Origin: an uncultured Eubacteriales bacterium
GTDB lineage: Bacteria > Bacillota > Clostridia > TANB77 > RGIG9151
Assembly: GCA_964640345.1 (NCBI GenBank)
Contig: CAZXFU010000037.1
Span: 1 to 12,814, forward strand
Direction of reading: 5' to 3'
Length of the DNA stretch: 12,814 nt
Positions 693-12,814 of this stretch are shown piece by piece; positions within the stretch are counted from its first letter, which is position 1, and the number at the start of each line of letters is the position of its first letter. Under the pieces are notes generated by a model that was not told the origin of the DNA, did not search any database, and saw only the letters and a list, made by a program, of their open reading frames with translations. The position numbers were made by a program, and so were the translations under genes.

Positions 693-1967
693 TTACATTT
701 TTCTAACCTTCTCAACAAACTCCTTATTATCTTTTGTCGCAACCAATAAATTAAGCAAGCTTTCCGCAATATCCTGGTTCCCTTGATTGAAAAGCTTTCT
801 TCGTATATTTACCACTGCTTCCCATTCATCTTTTGTAAATAATAAATCGTCTCTTCTAGTCCCGGATTTATTCATGTCAATCGCTGGAAATATACGTTTT
901 TCAGACAACTTTCTATCTAAATGTAATTCCATATTTCCGGTTCCTTTAAATTCTTCAAAAATAACATCATCCATACGACTTCCCGTTTCAATAAGTGCAG
1001 TAGCTAAAATAGTAAGACTTCCGCCATTTTCTATATTTCTTGCTGCACCAAAAAATTTCTTTGGCTTATGAAGTGCCGCCGGATCCAATCCACCGGATAG
1101 TGTTCTGCCTGATGATGGAATAGTCAAATTATATGCACGAGCCAGCCTTGTGATGCTGTCAAGTAATATAACAACATCTTTTTTATGTTCAACAAGCCTC
1201 TGAGCACGTTCTAACACCATTTCAGCCACTCTTATATGATGTTCCGGTAATTCATCAAAAGTAGAATAAATAACTTCACCATTTATTGAACGCTGCATAT
1301 CGGTAACTTCTTCAGGTCTTTCGTCGATTAGCAAAACAATAAGTTCTATGTCAGGATAATTAGTCGAAATTGCATTTGCAATCTTTTTTAATAAAGTTGT
1401 TTTTCCGGCTTTAGGCGGTGCAACTATCATGCCTCTTTGCCCCTTACCGATAGGAGCGATAATATCAATCAGTCTTGTTGCTGTTTCTGCCCTTGTCATC
1501 TCTAATCTAAGCCTGTAATCAGGATATACGGGAATTAACTGTTCAAAAGGTTTACGACGAAGTGCAACACTCACATCATCTCCATTAACAGAATTCACAT
1601 AGATAAGTGCACGGAATCGTTCTCCCTCCCTACATGGCCTAACTTTGCAATTAATTTTATCTCCTGTTTTCAAATTAAACCTTCTTATTTGAATTGGCGA
1701 AACATAAATATCTTGTGTTCCACTCAAATAATTTTCAGAACGTAAAAAGCCAAAACCATCCGCTAAAACTTCAAGTATTCCTTCAGCATCCTCAGGTTCT
1801 TCTTTCTGCTGCTCCTTTTCGGTCGTTCCTTTTTCATCTACTCTAATTACCTCTTTTTCGTTTTTAGATAAAGCCTCAATCAACTCACTTTTCTTTAACT
1901 TTGAATAGTTTTCAACTCCGGCTTCCTTTGCAAGTTCTCTTAACTCAGTAACAGTCTTGTTTGTCAT
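693..1967 (-). CDS. rho: Transcription termination factor Rho
   Basis: The protein shows an N-terminal Rho_N motif ([29 protein letters not shown]), a cold-shock-like RNA-binding region ([14 protein letters not shown]...[16 protein letters not shown]), Walker A ([11 protein letters not shown]) and a RecA-type ATPase core. I place the start at ATG 1967 because AAGGAGG sits 6 nt upstream. The track's TTG at 2045 would add a hydrophobic 26-aa leader that is not part of Rho. Confidence 0.95.
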
Positions 1968-2034
1968 AAAAGGCCTCCTTATTAATTTGTATGCTATTGG
2001 GATTTTTTGTAAGAAAATAAAATATCTATTTAGA

Positions 2035-2057
2035 AAGGACGGCAAAATACCGTCCTT
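2035..2057 (-). terminator. Hairpin downstream of yabR and upstream of rho (weak or partial intrinsic terminator)
   Basis: An 8-bp stem AAGGACGG/CCGTCCTT (2035-2042 pairing with 2050-2057) encloses a 7-nt loop. On the minus strand it is followed by TTCTAAATAGATATTTTATTTTC, an interrupted U-tract. It lies 29 nt after the yabR stop. Confidence 0.6.
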
Positions 2058-2085
2058 AAATTAAATTATATATTCATAGGAAAGC

Positions 2086-2466
2086 TTATCTTCTGCTTCC
2101 TCTACTTCTCTTAGACTCAAAACTACGTTTTACTTCACTCTGTCTTTCCTCACTGTCCTTCAAAAACTTACTTAATCTATCTTCAAAAGACACTTCGTTA
2201 TTTCTTTTATGTTCATTATTAGGTCTGGTTTCGTTTGCTTTCTTTATCGACAAAGTTATCTTTTTATTAGCTGTATCTACATTCAAAACTTTAACCTTTA
2301 CTTTTTGATCCGGAGATAAAAACTCAGAAACATCTTTAACATATCCGTCCGCTATTTCCGAAATATGAACTAAGCCTGTCTGCCCTTCTCCTAAATCTAC
2401 AAATGCTCCAAAATTAGTAATCGATTTTACTGTTCCTTCTACTATTTCTCCTACTTTTAATGGCAT
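2086..2466 (-). CDS. yabR: S1 RNA-binding domain protein (YabR-like)
   Basis: MPLKVGEIVEGTVKSITNFGAFVDLGEGQTGLVHISEIADGYVKDVSEFL...KVKVLNVD is a canonical S1 OB-fold, followed by a basic tail. Its position after yabP-yabQ-divIC matches the Bacillus/Clostridium synteny. Confidence 0.85.
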   Translation of the reverse strand: MPLKVGEIVEGTVKSITNFGAFVDLGEGQTGLVHISEIADGYVKDVSEFLSPDQKVKVKVLNVDTANKKITLSIKKANETRPNNEHKRNNEVSFEDRLSKFLKDSEERQSEVKRSFESKRSRGSRR

Positions 2467-2504
2467 ATAAAAACCACGTCATCCTTTCTCCTTATTCTTA
2501 TTCC

Positions 2505-2533
2505 ATTTTACCTTAAAATCCTTATTACGTCAA
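2505..2533 (-). promoter_or_regulatory. Candidate sigma-A-type promoter for yabR (and possibly rho)
   Basis: Read on the minus strand: TTGACG (2533-2528), a 17-nt spacer, then TAAAAT (2510-2505). This lies in the 85-nt divIC-yabR spacer. Sequence match only. Confidence 0.5.
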
Positions 2534-2551
2534 CATATTTTCCTCAATTTG

Positions 2552-2821
2552 CTAAATTTCAATATATATTCTTTCTTCTGGCAAAAGCATACCCAGTTTC
2601 TCCCTTGCAATCTTTTCTATATATTCATCTGAATTTACATATTCTGAATAATGCTTGTACTCTTCTTGTTTTTGCTTAGCCAAATTAATTTGTTCCATAT
2701 ACATTGCTTTTTCTTTTTCATACTTTCTCATTTCTACTTCTTGCTTGAATAATGTATATGTTGCATATATAGCTAAAAAGAAAAGCACACATATTTTAAA
2801 CCAATTTACTTTTCTTTTCAT
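2552..2821 (-). CDS. divIC: Septum formation initiator, FtsB/DivIC family
   Basis: This 89-aa protein has a short basic N-terminus, one TM helix (FKICVLFFLAIYATYTLF), a coiled coil (QEVEMRKYEKEKAMYMEQINLAKQKQEEY) and the C-terminal IEKIAREKLGMLLPEE motif typical of DivIC/FtsB. An AAGGGGG SD sits 6 nt upstream. The gene overlaps the yabQ 3' end by 26 nt. Confidence 0.82.
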   Translation of the reverse strand: MKRKVNWFKICVLFFLAIYATYTLFKQEVEMRKYEKEKAMYMEQINLAKQKQEEYKHYSEYVNSDEYIEKIAREKLGMLLPEERIYIEI

Positions 2822-3173
2822 TATTTGCCCCCTTGAAAACTTTAATTAGCCATCCTATCAACCCTACTAAATATCGGCATATAAAATCCAAAACTTTATA
2901 TGTAAAATTAGTTAAAGTAAGAAAATATATAAGCATTCCTAAAAAGACTGCTAAAATCATATATATTCTAATTGTGCCGGCGTTTAAAATATATGAAAGC
3001 CAGATAACTCCACATCCTAAAACAATCCAATAAAGGACATCTTCAAGGCAAACTACTACATCACTAACATTTCTGTTATGTCTAAATGCTCTTAAAATAT
3101 CCAAAAAAATTCCGGCAACCATTCCTTCTAAAATGAAATAAAGAAAAATTATCAGCTCTCTAGTTACTGTCAT
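2796..3173 (-). CDS. yabQ: Spore cortex biosynthesis membrane protein YabQ
   Basis: This 125-aa polytopic membrane protein carries the YabQ-like signature LEGMVAGIFLDILRAFR. It follows yabP directly, and an AGGAGG SD sits 8 nt before the ATG. Confidence 0.8.
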   Translation of the reverse strand: MTVTRELIIFLYFILEGMVAGIFLDILRAFRHNRNVSDVVVCLEDVLYWIVLGCGVIWLSYILNAGTIRIYMILAVFLGMLIYFLTLTNFTYKVLDFICRYLVGLIGWLIKVFKGANNEKKSKLV

Positions 3174-3190
3174 GCAGATTTACCTCCTGA

Positions 3191-3484
3191 TTACTTAAAT
3201 ATTTTACCGAAAAAACTTCCGTTTGTAACTGCCTTATCAGAATATGTGCAACTGCCAATTTCACCTTCTACACATAATTCTGAAGATTCCAAGTTTAACT
3301 TGTTTATATGTAAATCTATTCCCTTAATTGTAAGCATTCCCATTTCGGTTTGAACAACTACCATATCCGGGTTAAAAATATCTACATCAAGTACACCGGA
3401 TATGCTCATTTTTTCTCGGTTTTCCAGCAAAAAATTATGTTGCTTTTTGTTGTTTACAGTTTGCTTTCTTTCCTCAATTGGCAT
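3191..3484 (-). CDS. yabP: Sporulation protein YabP
   Basis: The 97-aa product contains HNFLLENREKMSISGVLDVDIFNPDMVVVQTEMGMLTIKGIDLHINKLNLESSELCVEGEI, which matches the YabP family pattern (l.nRe.l.itGV..V.sFd...i.l.T..G.L.IkGe.Lhi..l.le.g.l.i.G.I). A GGAGGG SD sits 6 nt upstream. Confidence 0.9.
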   Translation of the reverse strand: MPIEERKQTVNNKKQHNFLLENREKMSISGVLDVDIFNPDMVVVQTEMGMLTIKGIDLHINKLNLESSELCVEGEIGSCTYSDKAVTNGSFFGKIFK

Positions 3485-3576
3485 ATTGATCCCTCCGTTC
3501 TTTTGTATTAAATAATATTCATTGCTTGCCTTTATTATTACAAAATGTTAGAATAAATTTTGAGGTGAAACTGCCA

Positions 3577-3936
3577 ATGGATATAAACAGTGTTAATCAA
3601 ATATTTAGCCAAAAATTGCAAGATATAAATTCACGTTTACCCGATAAGATAAGCATAAACGGAAAATTTCAGTCTATACTGGAGCAAACACAACAAGAAA
3701 ACACAAATTCACTTCAAGAAAATAAAACAACATCCACAAGTGATGACGATATATCTTCTTTGTTAAAAAACATGATATCAACCCAATCGCTAATAAATAC
3801 TAACTCTGCTTTTTCAGGGGATTCATCGTCAGGAATTTTCCCTACCTCTTCTTTCAACAATACAATAAACTCAATTCAACAAGCTCAGCTCCTAAAAGCT
3901 CTTGGTAATTCAAATAAATCTTCAAATGACAATTAA
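3577..3936 (+). CDS. Hypothetical S/N/Q/T-rich low-complexity protein (119 aa)
   Basis: I chose ATG 3577 because a GAGGTGA SD (3562-3568) sits 8 nt upstream. The track's TTG 3526 has no SD. The product has no Cys, Trp or Tyr, no signal peptide or TM helix, and no family I recognise. The frame stays open for 360 nt in AT-rich DNA, and a possible extended -10 (TGTTAGAAT, 3546-3554) lies upstream. Confidence 0.5.
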   Translation: MDINSVNQIFSQKLQDINSRLPDKISINGKFQSILEQTQQENTNSLQENKTTSTSDDDISSLLKNMISTQSLINTNSAFSGDSSSGIFPTSSFNNTINSIQQAQLLKALGNSNKSSNDN

Positions 3937-4050: not shown

Positions 4051-4305
4051 ATGAAATCAACAGGAATTGTTAGAAAAGTAGATGAATTGGGACGTGTTGT
4101 TCTTCCTATAGAACTTCGTCGTAGTTTAGATATTGAAGAAAAAGATGCTTTAGAAATTTATGTGGAAGATAATACAATTATCTTAAAAAAATATGAGCCG
4201 GATTGTATATTCTGTGGCAATGCAAGAGATGTTATAAACTTCAAAGGCAAGAACATCTGCACTGCTTGCTTAAAAGAAATGAAGAAGACGGCTAAAAATG
4301 TTTAA
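4051..4305 (+). CDS. abrB: Transition-state regulator AbrB (SpoVT/AbrB swapped-hairpin DNA-binding domain), clostridial type with a Cys4 C-terminus
   Basis: MKSTGIVRKVDELGRVVLPIELRRSLDIEEKDALEIYVEDNTIILKKY is nearly identical to the B. subtilis AbrB N-domain as I remember it. The C-terminal 35 aa carry CIFC...CTAC. Confidence 0.93.
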   Translation: MKSTGIVRKVDELGRVVLPIELRRSLDIEEKDALEIYVEDNTIILKKYEPDCIFCGNARDVINFKGKNICTACLKEMKKTAKNV

Positions 4306-4336
4306 TTTTATTAAAAAATAAATATAGTATTGGTTT

Positions 4337-4386
4337 AAAATGCAAAGAAAAAGCGAGGGTGAGTCCCCGCTTTTTCTTTGCATTTT
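4337..4386. terminator. Bidirectional intrinsic terminator shared by abrB (+) and the hydrogenase operon (-)
   Basis: A perfect 14-bp stem GCAAAGAAAAAGCG (4342-4355) pairs with CGCTTTTTCTTTGC (4368-4381). It extends by GGG/CCC across one bulged A and closes on a 5-nt loop TGAGT. The stem is flanked by AAAA (4337-4340) and TTTT (4383-4386), so each strand reads hairpin plus U-tract. Confidence 0.88.
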
Positions 4387-4419: not shown

Positions 4420-5892
4420 TTATTCTACACCATTTTGTTCCCCGTTGTCAACATCTTTGTTTTGATTTTCACTTTGACTCATCTTATATAATCTAACAGA
4501 ATTATCTATACTCTTTTCTTTAGCATCCTCACCATATTTGTCAACATCAGCTGCATTCTTGGGACCGTGGCTTAAGCACAATGCTCCGTTTAAGCATCCA
4601 CCGTCACATGCCATACCTTCAAAGAAATTCTCAACAGCCTTATTAGCTTTTAATTTAAGTAGATTCAGTCTGCATTCATCTATGCCGCTCATAGCAACAG
4701 GTTTAACCTCAACGCCCATCTCAGTGCCAAGTTCTTTTACGCCCTTTGCTATACCACCGGATTTAGCAAAAATTCTTCCATAGTAAGATGCATTATCTAA
4801 AGATGACTCCTCTAACGAAGCAATATCAATCTCTCTAGCATCAAAGAATGCTTGCAATTCTTCAAATGATAAAACGCTGTCAATAGCTCCTCCAGTCTTT
4901 TCCAGCTTATACTCAAGCTTTTTACTGGTACATGGACCGATAAAAACAACCTTTGCAGTAGGATCTGAACTCTTAATAAGCCTTGCCGTTTCAATCATAG
5001 GAGAAACAGAACTTGAAATATATTTAGCAAGCTCAGGGAAATTCTTCTCAATAAACATAACAAATGAAGGGCAACATGATGTAGTCATAATTCCCTTTTC
5101 CTTAAACTCATTAAGCTCATGATATAATGTAATATCCGCACCAAGTGCCGCTTCAACAACATGATGAAAACCTAATTTTTTAATACCTGTAATAATCTGC
5201 TCAATTTTAGCATACTTAAACTGGCTAACAATAGACGGGGCAATAACCGCATAAACGTTGTAATTTTTATTATTATCCGACTCCTTTAAGAGCTTTAGCA
5301 CATCCATAATTAAAGACTTGTCTACAATTGCACCAAACGGGCATTGGTAAACACAAGCACCGCAAGAAATACATTTATCGTTATCAATAACAGCCTTCTT
5401 ATCCTCACCCATACTAATAGCCTTAACTTTACAACTGTTAACACAAGGTCTCTTCTGTGCAATAATTGCAGAATAAGGACAAGCTTTTGTACACATTCCG
5501 CACTCTATACATTTATCTTTATCAATAACAGCCTTTTTATTAACGATACTAATGGCACCCTTTGGGCAAACTTCCGTACATCTGTTAATAATGCATCCAC
5601 GGCAAGCTTGCGTAACAAGCATTCCCTCAATCGGGCATTCGTCACAAGCAATATCTATCACTTCAACAACATTGGGGTTGTCCTTATTTCCACCAAGAGC
5701 CATTTTTATTCTCTCCTGAACAATAGCTCTTTCCTTATATATGCAACATCTCATACTTGCCTTAGGACCTGGTACAACAACATTTGGAACATCACGGTAA
5801 ACATTTTGCATATCGTCTTGATCCGCCTTTTTTATCACTTCTCTTAGTACCTTATATTTAAGATGTTGTACCTTGGTATCAAATTTTTTCAT
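4420..5892 (-). CDS. hfsD: [FeFe]-hydrogenase, catalytic-type H-domain with multiple N-terminal Fe-S cluster motifs (HfsD-like, group B-like)
   Basis: All three H-cluster motifs are present: TTSCCPSF (5068-5082 encodes TSCCP), IGPCTSKKLE and FEGMACDGGCLNGA. The N-terminal half has ferredoxin-type motifs CIECGMCTKACP and CISCGACVYQCP plus CDECP...CRGCIINRCTEVCP. I place the start at ATG 5892 because a GAGGAG SD sits 7 nt upstream, 1 nt after the yfcE stop. The track's TTG 5913 would overlap yfcE and has no SD. Confidence 0.87.
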   Translation of the reverse strand: MKKFDTKVQHLKYKVLREVIKKADQDDMQNVYRDVPNVVVPGPKASMRCCIYKERAIVQERIKMALGGNKDNPNVVEVIDIACDECPIEGMLVTQACRGCIINRCTEVCPKGAISIVNKKAVIDKDKCIECGMCTKACPYSAIIAQKRPCVNSCKVKAISMGEDKKAVIDNDKCISCGACVYQCPFGAIVDKSLIMDVLKLLKESDNNKNYNVYAVIAPSIVSQFKYAKIEQIITGIKKLGFHHVVEAALGADITLYHELNEFKEKGIMTTSCCPSFVMFIEKNFPELAKYISSSVSPMIETARLIKSSDPTAKVVFIGPCTSKKLEYKLEKTGGAIDSVLSFEELQAFFDAREIDIASLEESSLDNASYYGRIFAKSGGIAKGVKELGTEMGVEVKPVAMSGIDECRLNLLKLKANKAVENFFEGMACDGGCLNGALCLSHGPKNAADVDKYGEDAKEKSIDNSVRLYKMSQSENQNKDVDNGEQNGVE

Positions 5893-5893
5893 T

Positions 5894-6427
5894 TTAGAAC
5901 TCCTCACTTTCAATCAAATTCCCTGCTAAATCTTTTAATTCAATCTTATTATCATCAAGAATTATACAACTGTTAGGCGTGTTATTCTTAGGTAACGACA
6001 CTGAACCGCTATTCGCAAAAACTGTTTTTGTGCCCTTTCTTATAAAACCGGTATGTAAATGTCCATAAATAACAGCATCATAAATGCCGTCTAACTCCGC
6101 CTCATCAATCTTGTGACCATGGGTCAAAAACAGCTTCTTATCATTAATACATAGCTGAATACTCTCTGTAAAGTGAAACTTAGAAATCATTTCATCAACT
6201 TCACTGTCGCAATTACCCTTTATACATAAAATTTTATCTGAAATATCATTAAGAATCTTTGCAACCTCACTAGGTGCATATCCATCCGGCAAAGGATTTC
6301 TGGGCCCATGATAATACAAATCTCCAAGTAAAATAAGCTGTTTTACATTTTCGGCGTTAAAACGTTCCATAAGCCTTTTCATGTAAGTCTTTGAACCATG
6401 AATATCAGATGCAATCATCAATCTCAT
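5894..6427 (-). CDS. yfcE: YfcE/MJ0936-family metallophosphoesterase (phosphodiesterase)
   Basis: Calcineurin-like phosphoesterase motifs are present in order: SDIHG, LGDLYYHGPRNPLPDGYAP, KGNCDSEVD, THGH, YGHLH and NSGSVSLPK. Length (177 aa) and motif order match E. coli YfcE as I recall it. A GGGGG SD sits 8 nt upstream. Confidence 0.85.
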   Translation of the reverse strand: MRLMIASDIHGSKTYMKRLMERFNAENVKQLILLGDLYYHGPRNPLPDGYAPSEVAKILNDISDKILCIKGNCDSEVDEMISKFHFTESIQLCINDKKLFLTHGHKIDEAELDGIYDAVIYGHLHTGFIRKGTKTVFANSGSVSLPKNNTPNSCIILDDNKIELKDLAGNLIESEEF

Positions 6428-6440
6428 AAAAATACCCCCA

Positions 6441-7601
6441 CTAAAAATATCTAACAGTAACTTTCTTTCCCATTTTTTTCAAATTTTCGGATAACGACTC
6501 CACCAGTTTTAGTTTCATCGTAGTATCAATCGGTAACCCCTGATGTGCAACATTTACACTTTGACCAACAAAAAAATTAACCTCGGTCGCATCTTCAAAC
6601 AACGCCTCTGCCAATAATGATGCACCATCATTTTTTACATAATACTTAGGTGAAACATCCTTAATATCTAAATATTTTTCTGACATACTAAGAAGCTTTC
6701 TTATTGTAATAACACCTTCAGTAACTAAATCGATCCCCTTAATATACGCAATTGGTGGAATCTCTTTATCTAAAAAATCCAAACTTGTGTGAAGTTCTTC
6801 TCCTAAATGCCTTGCAACAATCTGAGAACTTGTGCCGCCGCAAACAATATGCTTTCCACTCATATCCATAAAACCTTTTATATACTCGTTATCTCTTGAC
6901 TTATCTACAGGCGGTCCAACCATGATATTAATAACTGAATTTTCTCTAATCCTTATAGCCGCAACTGTAGTATCGTCACCCGGTTTATCTAAATATAAAT
7001 CATTGCAAGCAGAAGCAAGTAAACAAGCGATACATCTAGCCGACATTTTAGTTGTAACTGTTTTTTCAAGATACTCCATAATTTCATTTCTTTGCCAACC
7101 TAAATTAAGAAGCATGCCGATTCCGGCGTGTATTGTTCCGTCTGACATAACAATAACCACATCAGACGGTTCTAAATTGATATCTGTTTTATACACAACT
7201 TTTCCTAAAATGTCCAATTTCTCGCGACTAAAGTCTAAAGCTTTTCCATTATGCAAATATACCGCCTGAGGGTTATCAAACTCAACTAAATATCCTTTTC
7301 CTTTATTGTCTATATGAACAACAGAAAAAGTGGAATACGCCAGTCCTCTAACTTTGCAAACAGGAAGTGACTTAATTATAGTCTCTATGCACTCTTCAAT
7401 ATCCACATCATTAGCAATCATAGTACATAAAATCTTAGATGTAAGAGTAGATAAAATATTCGCTTTTACACCACTTCCCAGTCCATCTGCCAAAACCAAA
7501 GTAGTATACTCGTCATTAACGGAGATATCTACATTATCTCCGCAAAGTTCTTCTCCCACCTTATTAAGAGATGTATAACCATATTCAAGAAAAAGACTCA
7601 T
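6441..7601 (-). CDS. hfsC: PP2C/SpoIIE-family serine phosphatase with an uncharacterised C-terminal domain of about 165 aa (HfsC-like)
   Basis: The N-terminal half (about 219 aa) carries SpoIIE-type PP2C metal-ligand motifs: CGDNV, LADGLGSGVKA, VMSDGT and PGDDTTVAAIRI. The C-terminal part (residues 220-386, VCGGTSSQIVARHLG...) matches no family I can name. The ATG overlaps the hfsB TGA (ATGA at 7601-7598), and the SD GGAGGAGGAAGA lies within the last hfsB codons. Confidence 0.85.
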   Translation of the reverse strand: MSLFLEYGYTSLNKVGEELCGDNVDISVNDEYTTLVLADGLGSGVKANILSTLTSKILCTMIANDVDIEECIETIIKSLPVCKVRGLAYSTFSVVHIDNKGKGYLVEFDNPQAVYLHNGKALDFSREKLDILGKVVYKTDINLEPSDVVIVMSDGTIHAGIGMLLNLGWQRNEIMEYLEKTVTTKMSARCIACLLASACNDLYLDKPGDDTTVAAIRIRENSVINIMVGPPVDKSRDNEYIKGFMDMSGKHIVCGGTSSQIVARHLGEELHTSLDFLDKEIPPIAYIKGIDLVTEGVITIRKLLSMSEKYLDIKDVSPKYYVKNDGASLLAEALFEDATEVNFFVGQSVNVAHQGLPIDTTMKLKLVESLSENLKKMGKKVTVRYF

Positions 7602-9310
7602 TCTTCCTCCTCCTCTTGTAAAGTCTTTTTAAGCTTTAATAACGCCACCTTAGACTCAGCAGTAGTCTCGCCAAGAAGTGATGCTATCTCTTGCACAACT
7701 CTCATCTGCTTATTTATAACTTCATCAGTAGTTTTAAACGTTTCTTGTTTAACTTTGTTTAGCTTATCATTATAATTAACCCCGCTAGTTATATCTTTCA
7801 TAATTGCAAACATCGTCTTATGTTCTTTTAGATAGGTAATTGACAATTCAACATACGAATTAGTCTTAGGAATATACTTTTTCTTACGAATAATATTCTT
7901 TTCATCATTTAACGCAAACACAAAATCTGTCGGTTCAAAATAGTCAACAACGTATTTGCCTTTAACGTCATATCCTGTCATGCCGCCGAGTTCCAATGCC
8001 TTTGCGTTTATATCCACAATCTTCAACTCACTATCTACAACAATAATACCATTTGGACTGTTTTGAATAATCTCGTAAGACATTGACTCAGCTTTCTTCC
8101 TCATATACGGTAAGCACATATCAATATCTGCATAACCGTTCAATACAGCCCAAGCCTTTGCTCTGCAGGTAGAATACCCACAAACTCCGCAATTTAGCTC
8201 GTCCTCAGGCTTAAGTTTGCCTGTCTTTGCAAGTATCGCCTCAATTTGCTTATCCGTACCGGGAATATCTCCTGTTCTTATTCTATTATATTCGGCTGAT
8301 ACATCCAAATCATAAGGAATTTTATCACTTTTATCGCCAAGTCCCATTTCTTTCCTTGCATAACTACGCACAATTGCGTTAGAACTAATGCTGTCTTTTT
8401 CCTTGGTCAAACTGCAAGGCCCGTTTATACAAGCATTTGCACAACTGTTTATCTCCAAAAATATTCCGGATAAATCATTAATACTATTTAGCACTTCAAA
8501 ACAACGTTCCACCCCGTCAATAGCAATATATTCATACCCTTTTGGGAGACTAGTAAAAGACTTAATAATTCCACGACTTATAGGGAAATACTTGGCTCTA
8601 TTTACTACTTCTTTATCTTCACTAACATGAACATTTGAGATCATATTTAAATCAATATTATTTTCGTTAAATAACTCCAAAAGCTCCTCAAAAGTCAATA
8701 CCACGTCTATAACTCCGCTGTCTTTACCTTCTTTTTTCTTTGCAATACATGGACCTATAAAAACGACTTTAGCCTCTTTGTCTGCCTCTTTTATCATTTT
8801 CGCATGAACAACTGCCGGTGCATCCACGGGAGCCAAATACTCTAATGCATTTGGATAATAAATCTGTATCATTCTGTTTATTGCAGGACATGCAGATGTT
8901 ATAAAATTCTTATACTTTCCGCTATTTAAAAGCTTTTCGTATTCTTGAACAACAACATTCGCTCCAATCGAAGTCTCCTCTGCATCAAAAAAGCCTAACT
9001 TACATAAAGCAATTTTCATAACAGAAAAATCTTGAATCTTAAAACTTGAAATAAAGGAAGGAGCAACACTTGCAACAACCTTTTTATTGCTCTTTATAAG
9101 ATTTAAGACCTCATCTTTAGAACTATGAACACGTTTTGCATTTTGTGGGCAAACTCTAGTACATTTGCCACACAAAATACATCTTTCCTTTATAATTTTA
9201 GCCTGATGATCAACAACTTTAATAGCTTTTACAGGACATTCTCTTAAGCATTTATAGCAATCTTTACACTTTGCATTTCTAAACTCTAAATACTCTTCCA
9301 AAATCCTCAC
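7598..9310 (-). CDS. hfsB: Sensory-type [FeFe]-hydrogenase-like protein: 2x[4Fe-4S] ferredoxin + H-domain + Cys4 Fe-S motif + PAS (HfsB/HydS-like, phosphatase-linked group C)
   Basis: Ferredoxin motifs CKDCYKCLRECP and CILCGKCTRVCP are followed by modified H-cluster motifs: ITSACP (Ala140 at 8891-8893 in place of the first Cys of TSCCP), IGPCIAKKKE and EINSCANACINGP. Next come CGVCGYSTC-x16-C (residues 374-399), a PAS-like segment (about 410-510) and an acidic coiled tail ending EEEEE. The start is ambiguous. GTG 9310 has its GGAG abutting the start codon, whereas TTG 9301 has a GGAG 8 nt upstream. Confidence 0.88.
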   Translation of the reverse strand: MRILEEYLEFRNAKCKDCYKCLRECPVKAIKVVDHQAKIIKERCILCGKCTRVCPQNAKRVHSSKDEVLNLIKSNKKVVASVAPSFISSFKIQDFSVMKIALCKLGFFDAEETSIGANVVVQEYEKLLNSGKYKNFITSACPAINRMIQIYYPNALEYLAPVDAPAVVHAKMIKEADKEAKVVFIGPCIAKKKEGKDSGVIDVVLTFEELLELFNENNIDLNMISNVHVSEDKEVVNRAKYFPISRGIIKSFTSLPKGYEYIAIDGVERCFEVLNSINDLSGIFLEINSCANACINGPCSLTKEKDSISSNAIVRSYARKEMGLGDKSDKIPYDLDVSAEYNRIRTGDIPGTDKQIEAILAKTGKLKPEDELNCGVCGYSTCRAKAWAVLNGYADIDMCLPYMRKKAESMSYEIIQNSPNGIIVVDSELKIVDINAKALELGGMTGYDVKGKYVVDYFEPTDFVFALNDEKNIIRKKKYIPKTNSYVELSITYLKEHKTMFAIMKDITSGVNYNDKLNKVKQETFKTTDEVINKQMRVVQEIASLLGETTAESKVALLKLKKTLQEEEEE

Positions 9311-9312
9311 TC

Positions 9313-9561
9313 CTATCTAGTAACCTCAGGCAAAATCTCATTAACAAAAATATCTTCCGTGTTACCGACATTAACGTTTAATAAAATTCTATCGTCGGCC
9401 TTAACAGTAACACCTTCTGAGCAATGACCCAAACAAAAACTTGCCTGTAACTCAATAAGATCCTCAACTTCATATTTTTTTAGCAATTCCTTAAATTTTT
9501 CAATAACATCATAAGAGCCCTTTAAATGACATGAACTACCAACGCAAACTTTTAATACCAT
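9313..9561 (-). CDS. hfsA: Small thioredoxin-like [2Fe-2S] ferredoxin (NuoE/HndA-like; HfsA-like)
   Basis: The 82-aa product MVLKVCVGSSCHLKG...FCLGHC has the Cys spacing C-x4-C-x31-C-x3-C, characteristic of NuoE-type [2Fe-2S] proteins. I chose ATG 9561 because a GAGGAGAGGGG SD lies upstream. The track's longer ORF to 9663 would overlap adhE by 85 nt and adds an implausible basic, Cys-rich leader. Confidence 0.8.
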   Translation of the reverse strand: MVLKVCVGSSCHLKGSYDVIEKFKELLKKYEVEDLIELQASFCLGHCSEGVTVKADDRILLNVNVGNTEDIFVNEILPEVTR

Positions 9562-9578
9562 AGTTACTACCCCTCTCC

Positions 9579-12158
9579 TCATATTTCTTCTCCATAATAT
9601 GCTTTTTTGTAAAGTTCCATGATTTCTTCTACAAGCGGATATCTTGGATTTGCACCTGTACATTGGTCGTCGTGAGCATTCTCAGATAATCTCCTTAATC
9701 CAGCCATAAATGTTTTTTCATCAACACCACATTCCTTTATTGACATAGGCATATTTAAATCTCTCATAAGTTGTCTTATTGCTTTTATCAAATTATCTAC
9801 ACTCTCTTCTGTTGTATTTCCGGCGAAACCAACAAACCTTGCAGCCTTAGCATACTTTTCATCTGCAATAAAGTATTCATATTTAGGGAATGTTGCAAAT
9901 TTGGTAGGTTTTGTTGCATTATACTTTATAACATACGGAAGTAAAACAGCATTAGCTCTTCCATGTGGGATATGATATTCTCCACCTAACTTATGAGCCA
10001 TACTATGATTTAACCCAAGAAATGCATTTGTAAACGCCATACCAGCGATGCAACTTGCATTGTGCATTTTTTCTCTTGCTTTTTCATCTTCCTCCCCATG
10101 ATCATATGCACGTTTTAAATAATCAAAAACCAAATCCATTGCCTGAAGTGCAAGACCGTCAGTATAGTCACTTGCCATATTAGAAACATATGCCTCTAAT
10201 GCATGTGTTAATACGTCCATTCCGGTATCAGCAGTCGCTGACTTAGGAAGGCTCATAACAAATTGTGGATCAATAATTGCAACATCTGGCTTTAGTGCAT
10301 AATCTGCCAAAGGATACTTTATATTTCCATTCTTTCTATCAGTTATAACAGCAAATGCCGTTACTTCACTACCTGTACCACTGGTTGTAGGAACTGCAAC
10401 AAACTTTGCAAGTTGTCCTAAGTTAGGAAATTTTACAACCCTTTTTCTAATATCCATAAACTTCTGTTTAAGTCCATCAAATGTTGCATCAGGATGCTCG
10501 TAGAATAACCACATTCCCTTTGCAGCATCTATTGCCGAACCACCACCAATAGCAATAATAACGTCCGGCTTAAAATCACGCATCTCTGCAACACCACGCA
10601 TAATTGTATCTACGTCAGGATCCGGTTCAACATCTGAATAAATCTTTGAATGACAATACTGTTCTCTCTTTCTTAAATAATATAAAGCCTTATCAACATA
10701 TCCAAGTTTTACCATAGTAGGATCAGTAACAATAAACGCTCTTGAAATACCTTCCATATTTTCTAAATATTGAATAGAATCCTTTTCAAAATAAATCTTT
10801 GGTGGAATTTTAAACCATTGCATATTAACCCTTCTTTCCGCTATTTTCTTTTTATTTATAAGGTTTACAGTAGATACATTCGATGTTGTGCTGTTATGTC
10901 CGTAAGAACCGCATCCTAAAGTAAGTGACGGAGTATTTGTATTATAAATATCGCCAATTGCTCCCTGTGAAGAAGGTGAGTTAACTATAATTCTTCCCAC
11001 TTTCATTGCTTCTCCGAACTCTCTTATAACCTTTTCATCAGAACTATGAATAATTGCAGAATGTCCAAGTCCGCCATAGTCCAAAATCTTTTTGCAAATT
11101 GCAAATCCTTCTTCGTGACCGTCAACAACGTAATATGCTAAAACCGGGGATAATTTTTCATGAGATAATGGATAATCAGGTCCAACCCCATCAAGTTTTG
11201 CAATTAAAATCTTAGTTTTAGGCTCAACCTCTATACCTGCCATTTCTGCAATAACAGCCGCCGGCATACCGACAACTTTAGAATTTAACTTCCCATCAGC
11301 CATCATAAAGTCAGATAATCTCTTAATTTCATTATCATTTAAGAAATAGCAATCATTAGCCTTCATATATTCTTCAAATGGAGTCCTTATAACACTATCA
11401 ACTATAACAGCCTGTTCAGATGCACAAATCATACCATTATCAAAAGTTTTAGAAAGCATTAAATCCGTACAAGCTCTTTTTAGCTTTGCAGTAGTTTCAA
11501 TATAACATGGTGCATTCCCCGGTCCAACGCCAAGTGCGGGTTTACCGCAACTATATGCAGATTTTACCATTCCGGAACCGCCTGTTGCTAAAATAAGTGA
11601 AACATTTGGATGATTCATAAGAGCTGTAGTTGCTTCAATAGAAGGTTCTTCTATCCATTGAATACAATTTTCAGGTGCACCGGCCTTAACAGCAGCTTCT
11701 CTTAAAATTTCAGCAGCTCTTTTTGAACATTGCTGTGCCGATGGGTGGAAACCAAATATAATTGGGTTTCTTGCCTTAGCACATATAAGAGACTTAAACA
11801 TTGTTGTAGAAGTAGGGTTTGTGACAGGAGTAACACCTGCAACAATTCCTACAGGCTCAGCCACTTCAACATATCCCTCCAGCTCATTTTCTTCAATAAT
11901 TCCGACAGTTTTTTCATGCTCTATAGAATGCCAAATATATTCTGTAGCGAAGATATTTTTAATAACCTTATCTTCATAAACGCCTCTTTTAGTTTCATCA
12001 ACAGCCAATCTTGCAAGTTCCATATGATGGTCAAGTCCAGCAAGTGCCATAGCTTTAACAATCTTATCAACTTGCTTTTGGTCAAGGTACATATACTCAC
12101 TTAATGCTTTTTCAGCCTTAACCACAAGTTCATTTACCATTTCGTTAACATCTCTCAT
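9579..12158 (-). CDS. adhE: Bifunctional acetaldehyde-CoA / alcohol dehydrogenase AdhE
   Basis: The 859-aa product has an N-terminal ALDH domain with the catalytic-Cys motif FDNGMICASEQ, the linker NMQWFKIPPKIYF, and a C-terminal Fe-ADH domain with GGGSAIDAAK, PTTSGTGSEVT and the His-rich site HALEAY...LNHSMAHKLGGEYHIPHG. The ATG overlaps the rex TGA. Confidence 0.97.
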   Translation of the reverse strand: MRDVNEMVNELVVKAEKALSEYMYLDQKQVDKIVKAMALAGLDHHMELARLAVDETKRGVYEDKVIKNIFATEYIWHSIEHEKTVGIIEENELEGYVEVAEPVGIVAGVTPVTNPTSTTMFKSLICAKARNPIIFGFHPSAQQCSKRAAEILREAAVKAGAPENCIQWIEEPSIEATTALMNHPNVSLILATGGSGMVKSAYSCGKPALGVGPGNAPCYIETTAKLKRACTDLMLSKTFDNGMICASEQAVIVDSVIRTPFEEYMKANDCYFLNDNEIKRLSDFMMADGKLNSKVVGMPAAVIAEMAGIEVEPKTKILIAKLDGVGPDYPLSHEKLSPVLAYYVVDGHEEGFAICKKILDYGGLGHSAIIHSSDEKVIREFGEAMKVGRIIVNSPSSQGAIGDIYNTNTPSLTLGCGSYGHNSTTSNVSTVNLINKKKIAERRVNMQWFKIPPKIYFEKDSIQYLENMEGISRAFIVTDPTMVKLGYVDKALYYLRKREQYCHSKIYSDVEPDPDVDTIMRGVAEMRDFKPDVIIAIGGGSAIDAAKGMWLFYEHPDATFDGLKQKFMDIRKRVVKFPNLGQLAKFVAVPTTSGTGSEVTAFAVITDRKNGNIKYPLADYALKPDVAIIDPQFVMSLPKSATADTGMDVLTHALEAYVSNMASDYTDGLALQAMDLVFDYLKRAYDHGEEDEKAREKMHNASCIAGMAFTNAFLGLNHSMAHKLGGEYHIPHGRANAVLLPYVIKYNATKPTKFATFPKYEYFIADEKYAKAARFVGFAGNTTEESVDNLIKAIRQLMRDLNMPMSIKECGVDEKTFMAGLRRLSENAHDDQCTGANPRYPLVEEIMELYKKAYYGEEI

Positions 12159-12814
12159 AAAATTTCCTCTCCTTCATACAATTTTTTTAACTTACTCGAT
12201 AATATAGCAAGTGAAGCAGCTATATCCTCATTTTTCACAACTACTCCATCAGGCACTGTAATATGAGTAGGGGCGAAATTCCAAATAGCTTTTATACCCG
12301 CTTCAATTAATCTATCACAAACTTCTTGTGCATCTTGACTTGGGACTGTAATTATTCCAATATGAACATTCAACCTTTTTACAAAATTCTTAAGCTTTTC
12401 CATCGGCATAACTACTTTTCCATTTATCCTTTTTTGGTAAAGCATTTCATCGATGTCAAACCCTGCGACAATATTAATACCATAATTTTGGAATCCGTCA
12501 TAAGAAAGTAATGTTTTTCCCAATTGTCCTACCCCTACAATTATAGCATCTGTAGTATTGTCATATCCAAGAAACGAGGCTATATCTTTAACAAGTTCAT
12601 CTACATCAAAGCCTGTCTTAGGTTTTCCGGCAACACTACTCACACAAGCAAGGTCTTTTCTTACCTGGATAGCACTGAGATTCATACCTAATGACATAGT
12701 TGCGGACGACACATTACTTTTACCGTTTTTTTGAAGGTTAAGCAAATACCTATAATACATCGGCAATCTCGACAAAGTTGCGGTAGATACAGATTTACAT
12801 GAATCGTAGTCCAT
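12155..12814 (-). CDS. rex: Redox-sensing transcriptional repressor Rex
   Basis: The product has an N-terminal winged-helix with LSRLPMYYRYL and SSATMSLGMNLSAIQVRKDL. A Rossmann NAD(H) domain follows (AIIVGVGQLGKTLL, GIITVPSQDAQEVCDRLIEAGIKAIWNFAP). The ATG sits exactly at the window edge (12814-12812), so neither the SD nor any longer N-terminus can be checked. About 15 aa before RLP is typical for Rex. Confidence 0.92.
   Translation of the reverse strand: MDYDSCKSVSTATLSRLPMYYRYLLNLQKNGKSNVSSATMSLGMNLSAIQVRKDLACVSSVAGKPKTGFDVDELVKDIASFLGYDNTTDAIIVGVGQLGKTLLSYDGFQNYGINIVAGFDIDEMLYQKRINGKVVMPMEKLKNFVKRLNVHIGIITVPSQDAQEVCDRLIEAGIKAIWNFAPTHITVPDGVVVKNEDIAASLAILSSKLKKLYEGEEIL

Follow-up and report, generated by a model that had tools for sequence, protein, structure and literature searches.

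A rex-adhE-hfs gene block in an uncultured gut Clostridia bacterium, probably headed by a variant Rex operator

We analysed a 12,814-nucleotide stretch of DNA from an uncultured Eubacteriales bacterium of the class Clostridia (contig CAZXFU010000037.1 of assembly GCA_964640345.1; hereafter 'the window'), in which seven minus-strand genes follow one another in the order rex, adhE, hfsA, hfsB, hfsC, yfcE and hfsD, with intergenic gaps of -4 to 17 nucleotides (Table 1). A preliminary description of this DNA had proposed these seven open reading frames and their identities, and all of them hold in profile searches of the translations. AdhE is the bifunctional acetaldehyde-CoA/alcohol dehydrogenase, scoring above the equivalog cut-off, with an acetylating aldehyde dehydrogenase and an iron-type alcohol dehydrogenase (Fe-ADH) domain fused. 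The hfsABCD order of the Thermoanaerobacterium saccharolyticum type is retained on one strand, with yfcE inserted between hfsC and hfsD; the YfcE translation shows the metallophosphoesterase motifs DIHG, GD, GNCD and GHLH. Just outside the window, in front of rex, lies a palindrome that is probably a variant operator for the NADH sensor Rex.

Table 1. Genes and regulatory features of the rex-adhE-hfs block
Feature	Position	Strand	Identity and support
rex	12814..12155	-	NCBIfam NF003994, 280.7 bits (cut-off 130); Pfam PF06971 and PF02629
adhE	12158..9579	-	NF010378, 1401.8 bits (cut-off 951), residues 5-858; Pfam Aldedh, Fe-ADH and ADH_Fe_C
hfsA	9561..9313	-	82-residue thioredoxin-like [2Fe-2S] protein of the NuoE/HydC C-terminal type; PF01257, E = 2.7e-7
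hfsB/hydS	9301..7598 (GTG start at 9310 possible)	-	567-570 residues; PF02906, PF04060, PAS
hfsC	7601..6441	-	SpoIIE/RsbU-type PP2C phosphatase; PF07228
yfcE	6427..5894	-	YfcE-family Mn-dependent metallophosphoesterase; NF006988, 190.3 bits (cut-off 117)
hfsD	5892..4420	-	Monomeric group B-type [FeFe]-hydrogenase; TIGR04105, 552 bits (cut-off 450)
Palindrome ATCGATAA-N4-(A/T)TATCGAT	L001 141-158; L092 1927-1946; L214 4751-4770		Just upstream of window position 12814
Intrinsic terminator hairpin	4335..4384		22-bp stem flanked by A and U runs; ends the block
Second-strongest hairpin	9135..9184	-	In the hfsB ferredoxin-domain coding sequence, 17 bp; no U tract, not a terminator

Direct reading of the junctions confirmed the tight packing: rex and adhE overlap in an ATGA (12158-12155), as do hfsB and hfsC (7601-7598), and the other spacers measure 17 nucleotides (adhE to hfsA), 2 (hfsA to the GTG of hfsB), 13 (hfsC to yfcE) and 1 (yfcE to hfsD). 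The start of hfsB is probably the TTG at 9301 rather than the GTG at 9310, because homologues begin MxEYL and gene callers start there in relatives; the spacer then becomes 11 nucleotides long and carries GGAGTGAGGA. For hfsA, an alternative ATG at 9582 overlaps the adhE stop codon (ATGA) and was chosen by the gene caller in L092 (handles of this kind denote fetched loci), the 82-residue form being the called one in the relatives L005, L008 and L214. The codons of Glu-rich tails in four upstream genes had been thought to form the Shine-Dalgarno sequence of the next gene; this fails for adhE-hfsA, where the Shine-Dalgarno sequence lies mainly in the spacer and not in the Glu tail. As a special feature the tails are unremarkable, GAG and GGA codons being what a Shine-Dalgarno sequence inside an upstream 3' end encodes. 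An Rfam scan of the whole window matched no family and thus gave no riboswitch or leader RNA.

The packing is not a chance trait of one genome, because it is kept in relatives with 78-89% HfsB identity. The identical seven-gene order is found in four genomic contexts (the window and L092, L005, L008, and L214), at 78-100% protein identity, and this recurrence of the exact block in four different neighbourhoods argues that selection keeps the genes together as a unit.

The window ends exactly at the rex ATG, and the sequence upstream of it was taken from loci L001 (100% identical) and L092 (99.9% identical). The gene upstream of rex in L092 is divergent, so the promoter must be in the 167-nucleotide gap between the two. 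Towards rex, the gap contains TTGACT-17 nucleotides-TAGAAT, a T, ATATCGATAAGAAAATATCGATAT, AAGGAGAG and then the rex ATG; transcription most likely starts at this sigma-70-type promoter, just past the window edge. Directly after the -10 box, 18 nucleotides before the rex ATG, sits the palindrome ATCGATAA-GAAA-ATATCGAT, found once in the 12.2 kb of L092 and never within the block. In L214 a co-directional upstream gene ends in its own terminator hairpin, which is followed by the same promoter and palindrome. The preliminary description had called for a search upstream of 12814 for a canonical Rex operator: allowing up to three mismatches, we found none upstream of rex or at any junction, and in its place stands a variant 7-4-7 palindrome, ATCGATAAGAAAATATCGAT. 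A search with TTGTKAANNNNTTMACAA at up to three mismatches returned four matches in the window against 7.2 expected, none of them at a junction. The canonical Rex box was rejected as the operator here, given the missing upstream match and the fact that, in 33 loci, the best matches upstream of rex had at least four mismatches, L043 excepted.

At the other end, the terminator that the preliminary description had placed at 4342-4381 is confirmed and very strong (minimum free energy -37.3 kcal/mol, z = -9.7, 0 of 200 shuffles equally stable); it is the strongest 50-nucleotide fold on the minus strand. With A and U runs on both sides, it is probably shared by the convergent gene at 4051-4305. Contrary to what had been stated, there is a further strong hairpin: the one inside hfsB reaches -23 kcal/mol, against a window mean of -5.6 with a standard deviation of 3.3, and pairs the codons of CILCGK with those of VCPQNA in the ferredoxin domain. 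Paired synonymous changes preserve this second hairpin in L005, L008, L012 and L058, but many other homologues lack it; it may act in mRNA stability or processing, or be a side effect of antisense-symmetric peptide motifs. On the minus strand inside the block we found no terminator-like sites.

That the seven genes form a single transcript, as initially proposed, is plausible and has comparative support in the one promoter-operator at the head, the lack of internal ones, the one terminator at the end, the conservation of the block as a unit in four contexts and the precedent of Ruminococcus albus 7. The alternative is that rex-adhE and hfsA-D, or further sub-units, are separately transcribed from promoters in upstream coding sequence, the spacing reflecting genome compaction only. 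Two promoter-like pairs within coding sequence speak for this alternative and count against a single transcript, one in rex (TGGATA-18-TATAAT at 12569-12540) and one in the 3' end of adhE (TTTACT-16-TATAAT at 9945-9918), yet such hexamer pairs are not enriched in the window (46 versus 51 +/- 7.5 in shuffles). Loci of a Bacteroidales type (L013, L034, L146, L166 and L170) carry the operator between rex and adhE too, so sub-units would be separately regulatable in other lineages, and about half of the HydS loci have hfsABCD alone with its own operator. The block itself, however, contains neither an operator copy nor a terminator and includes two 4-nucleotide start/stop overlaps; in loci with both rex and adhE the motif precedes rex, not hfsA; and the R. 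albus cluster has been described as co-transcribed and regulated as one unit (PMC6776011). We consider separate transcription unlikely.

The preliminary description had implied that the arrangement is new, but a rex-adhE-hydS-PP2C-hydA2 cluster is already in the literature for R. albus 7. There, one strand of the 421-kb plasmid pRUMAL01, which a protein search of plasmid entries brought up, encodes, in this order, rex, adhE, a phosphotransferase (an APH/RIO-like small kinase), two (2Fe-2S) ferredoxin-domain proteins, a PAS-hydrogenase, a SpoIIE phosphatase and a 4Fe-4S hydrogenase, 'a putative eight-gene cluster' that is 111-fold down in H2-consuming co-culture (Greening et al. 2019, PMC6776011), with its H2-dependence reported in PMC10838669 as well. 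The window shares with it the order and strand of rex, adhE, the small [2Fe-2S] protein, the PAS-hydrogenase, the SpoIIE phosphatase and the group B hydrogenase, at 41-58% protein identity, as well as a TATCGATA-type palindrome pair upstream of rex (TTATATCGATAAAGATAATATCGATAT in R. albus 7, with a spacer of 5 nucleotides rather than the 4 of the window). Unlike the window, R. albus 7 has the APH/RIO-like kinase after adhE, two hfsA-like genes and no yfcE, and its intergenic gaps are 6-17 nucleotides rather than overlaps. Zheng et al. (2014, J Bacteriol 196:3840) reportedly described this cluster as one transcription unit. The architecture is known, and the window is a kinase-less, yfcE-containing member of a published, widespread kind.

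In Clostridium thermocellum, we take adhE (Clo1313_1798) and rex (Clo1313_1799) to lie directly upstream of hfs. The hfs-type cluster of this species (Clo1313_1796-1793) has an operon structure described as 'slightly different', and deletion of its hfsB raises ethanol (PMC5707799). T. saccharolyticum hfsABCD has the same order and domain content as the window and no yfcE. This hfsABCD operon is reportedly the subject of Shaw 2009. Its rex (Tsac_2615) and adhE (Tsac_0416) are unlinked to hfs, so that Rex acts in trans, and hfsABCD is a separate operon with the predicted canonical Rex site TTGTTAATAAATTAACTA (PMC5886521), which would place Rex, adhE and hfs in one regulatory circuit. The effect of hfsB loss in T. 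saccharolyticum that the preliminary description had cited is borne out by the literature: the deletion raises both ethanol and adhE expression (Eminoglu 2017, PMC5707799).

To see how common the arrangement is, we used an alignment of HfsB homologues to collect 80 species-representative genome loci and scored these by tblastn with the seven window proteins, limiting upstream counts to the 63 in which the sequence upstream of hfsB spans 4.5 kb or more. Co-directional rex and adhE lie upstream in 16 of the 63 loci, adhE only in 7, rex only in 7 and neither in 33; the synteny is recurrent and hence not unique to this genome, the outcome that the preliminary description had named as a refutation. 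Next after hfsB comes hfsC in every one of 66 loci, and 51 of these also have hfsD following. The loci come from Clostridia and from Bacteroidales metagenome-assembled genomes (MAGs), the closest species-representative genomes having 60-62% HfsB identity to the window. Sub-types can be told apart by what separates adhE from hfsA: an APH-like kinase gene in R. albus (L002), L030, L058 and others, and nothing in the window, L013, L034, L036, L087 and L089, where adhE directly abuts hfsA. No APH-like kinase gene was found anywhere in the window, in which adhE and hfsA leave only those 17 nucleotides between them. The insertion of yfcE between hfsC and hfsD recurs in L029, L030, L058 and the close relatives of the window.

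The window AdhE is 77-81% identical to that of Bacteroidales/Muribaculaceae MAG clusters (L012, L013, L034, L036, L146, L166 and L170) and only 48-50% identical to most AdhE proteins of Clostridia clusters. Since HfsB is about equally similar (~57-62%) to both groups, this split suggests that adhE genes of two lineages joined the block, or that there was transfer of adhE, or of the block, between the phyla. In clusters without AdhE a stand-alone Fe-ADH is often adjacent (L010/L011 14562-15728; L023/L028 ~8330-9550): it converges on hfsD in Borkfalkia-like loci, and in Bacteroidales loci it stands between rex and hfsA, preceded by the palindrome. The link between alcohol dehydrogenase and hydrogenase would on these grounds be broader than adhE. 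Some Bacteroidales loci (L022, L032 ~14330-16600; L152) have rex after hfsD, then the palindrome and next a class II fumarase/aspartase gene, which suggests that the same regulator may also control the fumarate branch as an electron sink.

The palindrome in front of rex is probably a variant Rex operator through which the operon is autoregulated. Allowing two mismatches at most, the motif TCGATAANNNNTTATCGA has 50 occurrences in the 1.6 Mb of collected loci, compared to 4-8 in shuffles, and almost always lies 6-130 nucleotides upstream of the first gene of a co-directional block. In rex-adhE-hfs loci that gene is rex, in hfs-only loci it is hfsA, and in L046 it is adhE; the Bacteroidales-type loci have the additional site between rex and adhE. 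Tandem copies spaced 14 bp apart are common. Further copies precede Fe-ADH, a hydC/nuoE-like gene and the fumarase/aspartase gene. We also scanned a metagenome collection with the bare pattern ATCGATAANNNNWTATCGAT, that is, without gene information. The scan gave 120 stretches, and a Rex homologue is encoded on 23 of them: 15 have the site directly upstream of rex, and in 6 it separates rex from the gene that follows (adhE, hydC-like or fumarase). When the downstream open reading frames were clustered, rex formed much the largest family; next came an nfnA-like ferredoxin-NADP reductase subunit (4 contigs), then adhE and hydC-like genes; Fe-ADH and fumarase/aspartase are likewise recurrent downstream of the motif. 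As rex is roughly one gene in a few thousand, the association is not a chance one, and the other genes next to the motif form, by their predicted identities, a typical Rex regulon.

The protein itself resembles canonical Rex, whose operator (ROP) is TTGTGAA-N4-TTCACAA or, in clostridia, TTGTTAA-N4-TTAACAA, in fold, in its Rossmann GxGxxG motif and in the Arg-Lys pair. It consists of a winged helix and a Rossmann domain, contains GVGQLG and matches the Rex structure PDB 3WG9 with E = 4e-43; the Arg-Lys recognition pair is kept, QVRKDL aligning with QIRQDL and TIRRDF of solved Rex proteins. The site, too, is canonical in being an 18-bp 7-4-7 palindrome over a promoter, with adhE, hydrogenases and nfnAB-type redox genes as predicted targets. 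What sets the system apart from canonical Rex is the TCGATAA half-site, the frequent 14-bp arrays, the position of rex as the first gene of its own presumed target operon and a changed wing. The wing of the window Rex reads ACVSSVAGKPKTGF rather than the glycine-rich FGxxGxxGxGY described as 'strictly conserved', and all motif-linked Rex proteins keep the Arg-Lys pair and have the wing G-[KR]-P-[KR]-x-G-[FY]. Within this Rex clade, recognition-helix residues do not cleanly separate loci with the motif from loci without it; the informative difference from solved canonical Rex proteins is clade-wide and in the wing. In the DNA-bound structure of Thermotoga maritima Rex, Arg48 reads the G at half-site position 3, Lys49 reads positions 5-6, and the wing residues Arg60 and Gly61 read the T's at positions 1-2 via the minor groove (PMC8836258). 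Compared to the clostridial TTGTTAA, the variant TCGATAA is changed at positions 2 (T to C) and 4 and keeps the G at position 3. As the wing reads positions 1-2 and position 2 is changed, an altered wing would fit an altered outer half-site.

Taken more broadly, ATCGATAA-N4-(A/T)TATCGAT, often in 14-bp arrays, could represent an undescribed class of Rex operator which, together with a distinct Rex clade carrying the G-K/R-P-K/R-x-G-F/Y wing, defines a redox regulon of many uncultured gut and rumen Clostridia and Bacteroidales, R. albus 7 included. The candidate regulon would comprise rex, adhE, Fe-ADH, the hfs and hydABC hydrogenases, nfnAB-like genes and fumarase/aspartase. We put this joint proposal forward tentatively, our confidence in it falling slightly short of even. 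No description of the motif was found in the full-text literature, which is weak evidence of novelty since the coverage leaves out most subscription journals and RegPrecise.

Several observations weigh against a Rex operator. Two of the seven positions in each half-site depart from TTGTTAA; the core TATCGATA is a palindrome in its own right and often arrayed at 14 bp, so another transcription factor could bind it; and the motif is missing from 4 of the 16 rex+adhE loci, among them L043, which has a near-canonical Rex box instead. The site could accordingly be that of a different regulator, such as the HydS/PP2C pathway's output factor, with rex merely one of its targets. Consistent with such a regulator, the half-site is unlike all published Rex consensus sequences, self-palindromic cores with a central CG in 14-bp arrays are unusual for Rex, and the motif heads hfs clusters with no rex nearby (L010, L016-L018 and L021). 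However, the commonest neighbour in the pattern scan is rex itself and the rest are classic NADH/redox genes, many of them on contigs without hydS or hfsC; the 7-4-7 geometry is that of Rex operators and the Arg-contacted G is kept; the positions that changed are matched by a clade-specific alteration of the Rex wing; and the site has no consistent link to the gene of any other transcription factor. We find it improbable that a different regulator is responsible, and retain the variant Rex operator as the preferred assignment.

Of the two [FeFe]-hydrogenases in the block, HfsB is a putative sensory enzyme of the group C (HydS) type. It combines two [4Fe-4S] ferredoxin clusters, the H-domain, a 4-Cys Fe-S domain (PF04060, residues 372-401), a PAS domain (residues 413-508) and an invariant C-terminal helix. 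In an alignment to CpI and T. maritima HydA, its pocket motifs TSACP, GPCIAKKKE and EINSCANAC place Ala at CpI C299, Gly at M353 and Asn at M497, while C141, C188, C290 and C294 are invariant among the homologues aligned. HfsB has the features by which group C is recognised, namely cluster cysteines kept, the proton-relay Cys and pocket Met residues replaced, and extra Fe-S and PAS domains; these are taken from a source that lists the substitutions A131/G177/S267 for T. maritima HydS, or TmHydS (PMC10055695). HfsB resembles TmHydS in having Ala at the proton-relay Cys, Gly at M353, a non-Met residue at M497, an extra [4Fe-4S] domain and a C-terminal PAS domain, and differs in having Asn rather than Ser at M497 and in its genomic partners. 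TmHydS itself, a sensory hydrogenase with biochemical data, was reportedly studied in Chongdar 2018. Conservation in HfsB peaks outside the H-domain, in the post-PAS helix (window 7598-7700, QMRVxQEIASLLGETTAExKVALLKLK), which stays unchanged between the window and R. albus despite 41% overall identity; one may speculate that it is an output or docking helix for HfsC and that its two invariant Thr residues are phospho-sites.

HfsD, by the same alignment, has its catalytic L1/L2/L3 H-cluster motifs intact, proton-relay Cys included (TSCCPSF, PCTSKKLE and EGMACDGGC/EGMACDGGCLNG), thereby keeping the Cys/Met/Met context that HfsB has lost, and is 58% identical to R. albus HydA2, which likewise matches TIGR04105. 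The TIGR04105 (FeFe_hydrog_B1) cut-off is exceeded by both R. albus HydA2 (L002 11844-13280) and the window HfsD, and both stay far under the cut-off of the group A model; Greening et al. (2019) label the ferredoxin-only hydrogenase of R. albus 'group A1' (PMC6776011).

HfsC consists of a phosphatase domain (residues ~1-220) and an alpha/beta C-terminal domain of ~160 residues. Its AlphaFold2 model (predicted local distance difference test score, pLDDT, 81.6) has as top Foldseek matches SpoIIE (5MQH/5UCG; E = 3e-12, probability 1.0), Rv1364c RsbU and RsbX. In structure the N-terminal domain matches these proteins best, and the metal-binding Asp residues are conserved, D39, D154, D209 and D210 being invariant in 30 homologues. 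The C-terminal domain gave no Pfam match at E <= 10 and, in Foldseek, only low-probability Rossmann/flavodoxin-like matches. Unlike the SpoIIE, RsbU and RsbX systems, the block encodes no STAS substrate, anti-sigma kinase or sigma factor, and neither a STAS nor an anti-sigma kinase gene, as expected for partner switching, was found in the window.

In the original 'hfs' reading, HfsA, HfsB and HfsD would be one multisubunit catalytic hydrogenase, with HfsB as an electron-transfer or low-activity subunit and HfsC as a post-translational regulator. This can draw on the several Fe-S clusters of HfsB, on the near-constant adjacency of hfsA-B-C-D noted above and on T. saccharolyticum, in which hfsB deletion raised rather than abolished hydrogenase activity and the phenotype required intact hfsC and hfsD, the authors suggesting post-transcriptional effects on alcohol dehydrogenase activity (PMC5707799). 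We nevertheless judge it the least probable of the alternatives, and quite doubtful: HfsB lacks the proton-relay Cys and pocket Met residues, like the low-activity TmHydS, has a PAS domain and is translationally coupled to a PP2C phosphatase of the partner-switching type, and HfsD alone carries every catalytic motif and belongs to a family named 'monomeric'.

On balance, we consider it likely that the block is one operon and serves as a 'high-H2/high-NADH' fermentation module of a spore-forming gut Clostridia bacterium. Transcription would most likely run from TTGACT-17-TAGAAT through rex to hfsD and stop at the hairpin 4335-4384. At low NADH/NAD+, Rex would bind the palindrome and shut off its own operon; external H2 would block NADH-dependent H2 formation, NADH would rise and Rex would leave the DNA. 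AdhE would then drain NADH to ethanol and HfsD, as a group B, ferredoxin-dependent enzyme, reduced ferredoxin to H2. Because rex is the first gene of the operon, newly made Rex would close the loop, amounting to negative autoregulation. By homology, HfsB may bind H2 as a sensor of low turnover and, through its PAS domain and C-terminal helix, control the HfsC phosphatase, and HfsC may adjust the phosphorylation of a target, adding an H2-specific input atop the NADH input. As the window lacks the APH-like kinase and has YfcE instead, the kinase may be encoded elsewhere or this variant may signal differently.

The preliminary description had seen in the block a switch between ethanol and H2. This does not agree with R. 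albus, in which AdhE and the ferredoxin-only hydrogenase are induced together at high H2, NADH going to ethanol and reduced ferredoxin to H2, while at low H2 the bifurcating HydABC and acetate formation are used instead (PMC6776011). By analogy, the operon is the co-expressed ethanol-plus-ferredoxin-H2 arm of a switch, not a switch between its own two enzymes.

Some points tell against the proposed mechanism. There is no kinase partner in the window, and we know of no H2-sensing activity or phosphatase substrate for any HfsB/HfsC pair. In addition, rex expression rose rather than fell in the high-ethanol hfs mutants of T. saccharolyticum (PMC5707799), so the relationship between Rex and hfs is not simple.

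The remainder of the window is a sporulation and cell-division neighbourhood. Positions 693-3484 of the minus strand encode rho (450 residues), an S1-domain protein, divIC, yabQ and yabP; the presence of yabP, yabQ and divIC points to a spore-forming Firmicute as the host. The plus-strand gene at 4051-4305, which converges on the operon and probably shares its terminator, encodes an 84-residue AbrB/MazE-type DNA-binding protein with a zinc-ribbon-like C-terminal tail, and a 136-residue open reading frame at 3526-3936, also on the plus strand, has no Pfam match.

The operon joins an NADH sensor and the main sink for NADH (ethanol) with a putative sensor of H2 and an H2 producer that depends on ferredoxin. 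This module is thought to set the balance of ethanol, acetate and H2 in rumen and gut fermenters, and hence the H2 supply of methanogens, and it is the same module that biofuel engineers disturb when deleting hfsB. To this the window adds that the block occurs widely and acts as a unit, and that a kinase-less yfcE variant exists. If NADH-sensitive binding of Rex to ATCGATAA-N4-WTATCGAT proves true, the TTGTGAA-type searches of published Rex regulon reconstructions would miss this operator; the shares of NADH (through Rex) and H2 (through HydS/PP2C) in regulation would be separable in R. albus 7, which has the same site; and the redox regulons of many uncultured Clostridia and Bacteroidales would become predictable from sequence.

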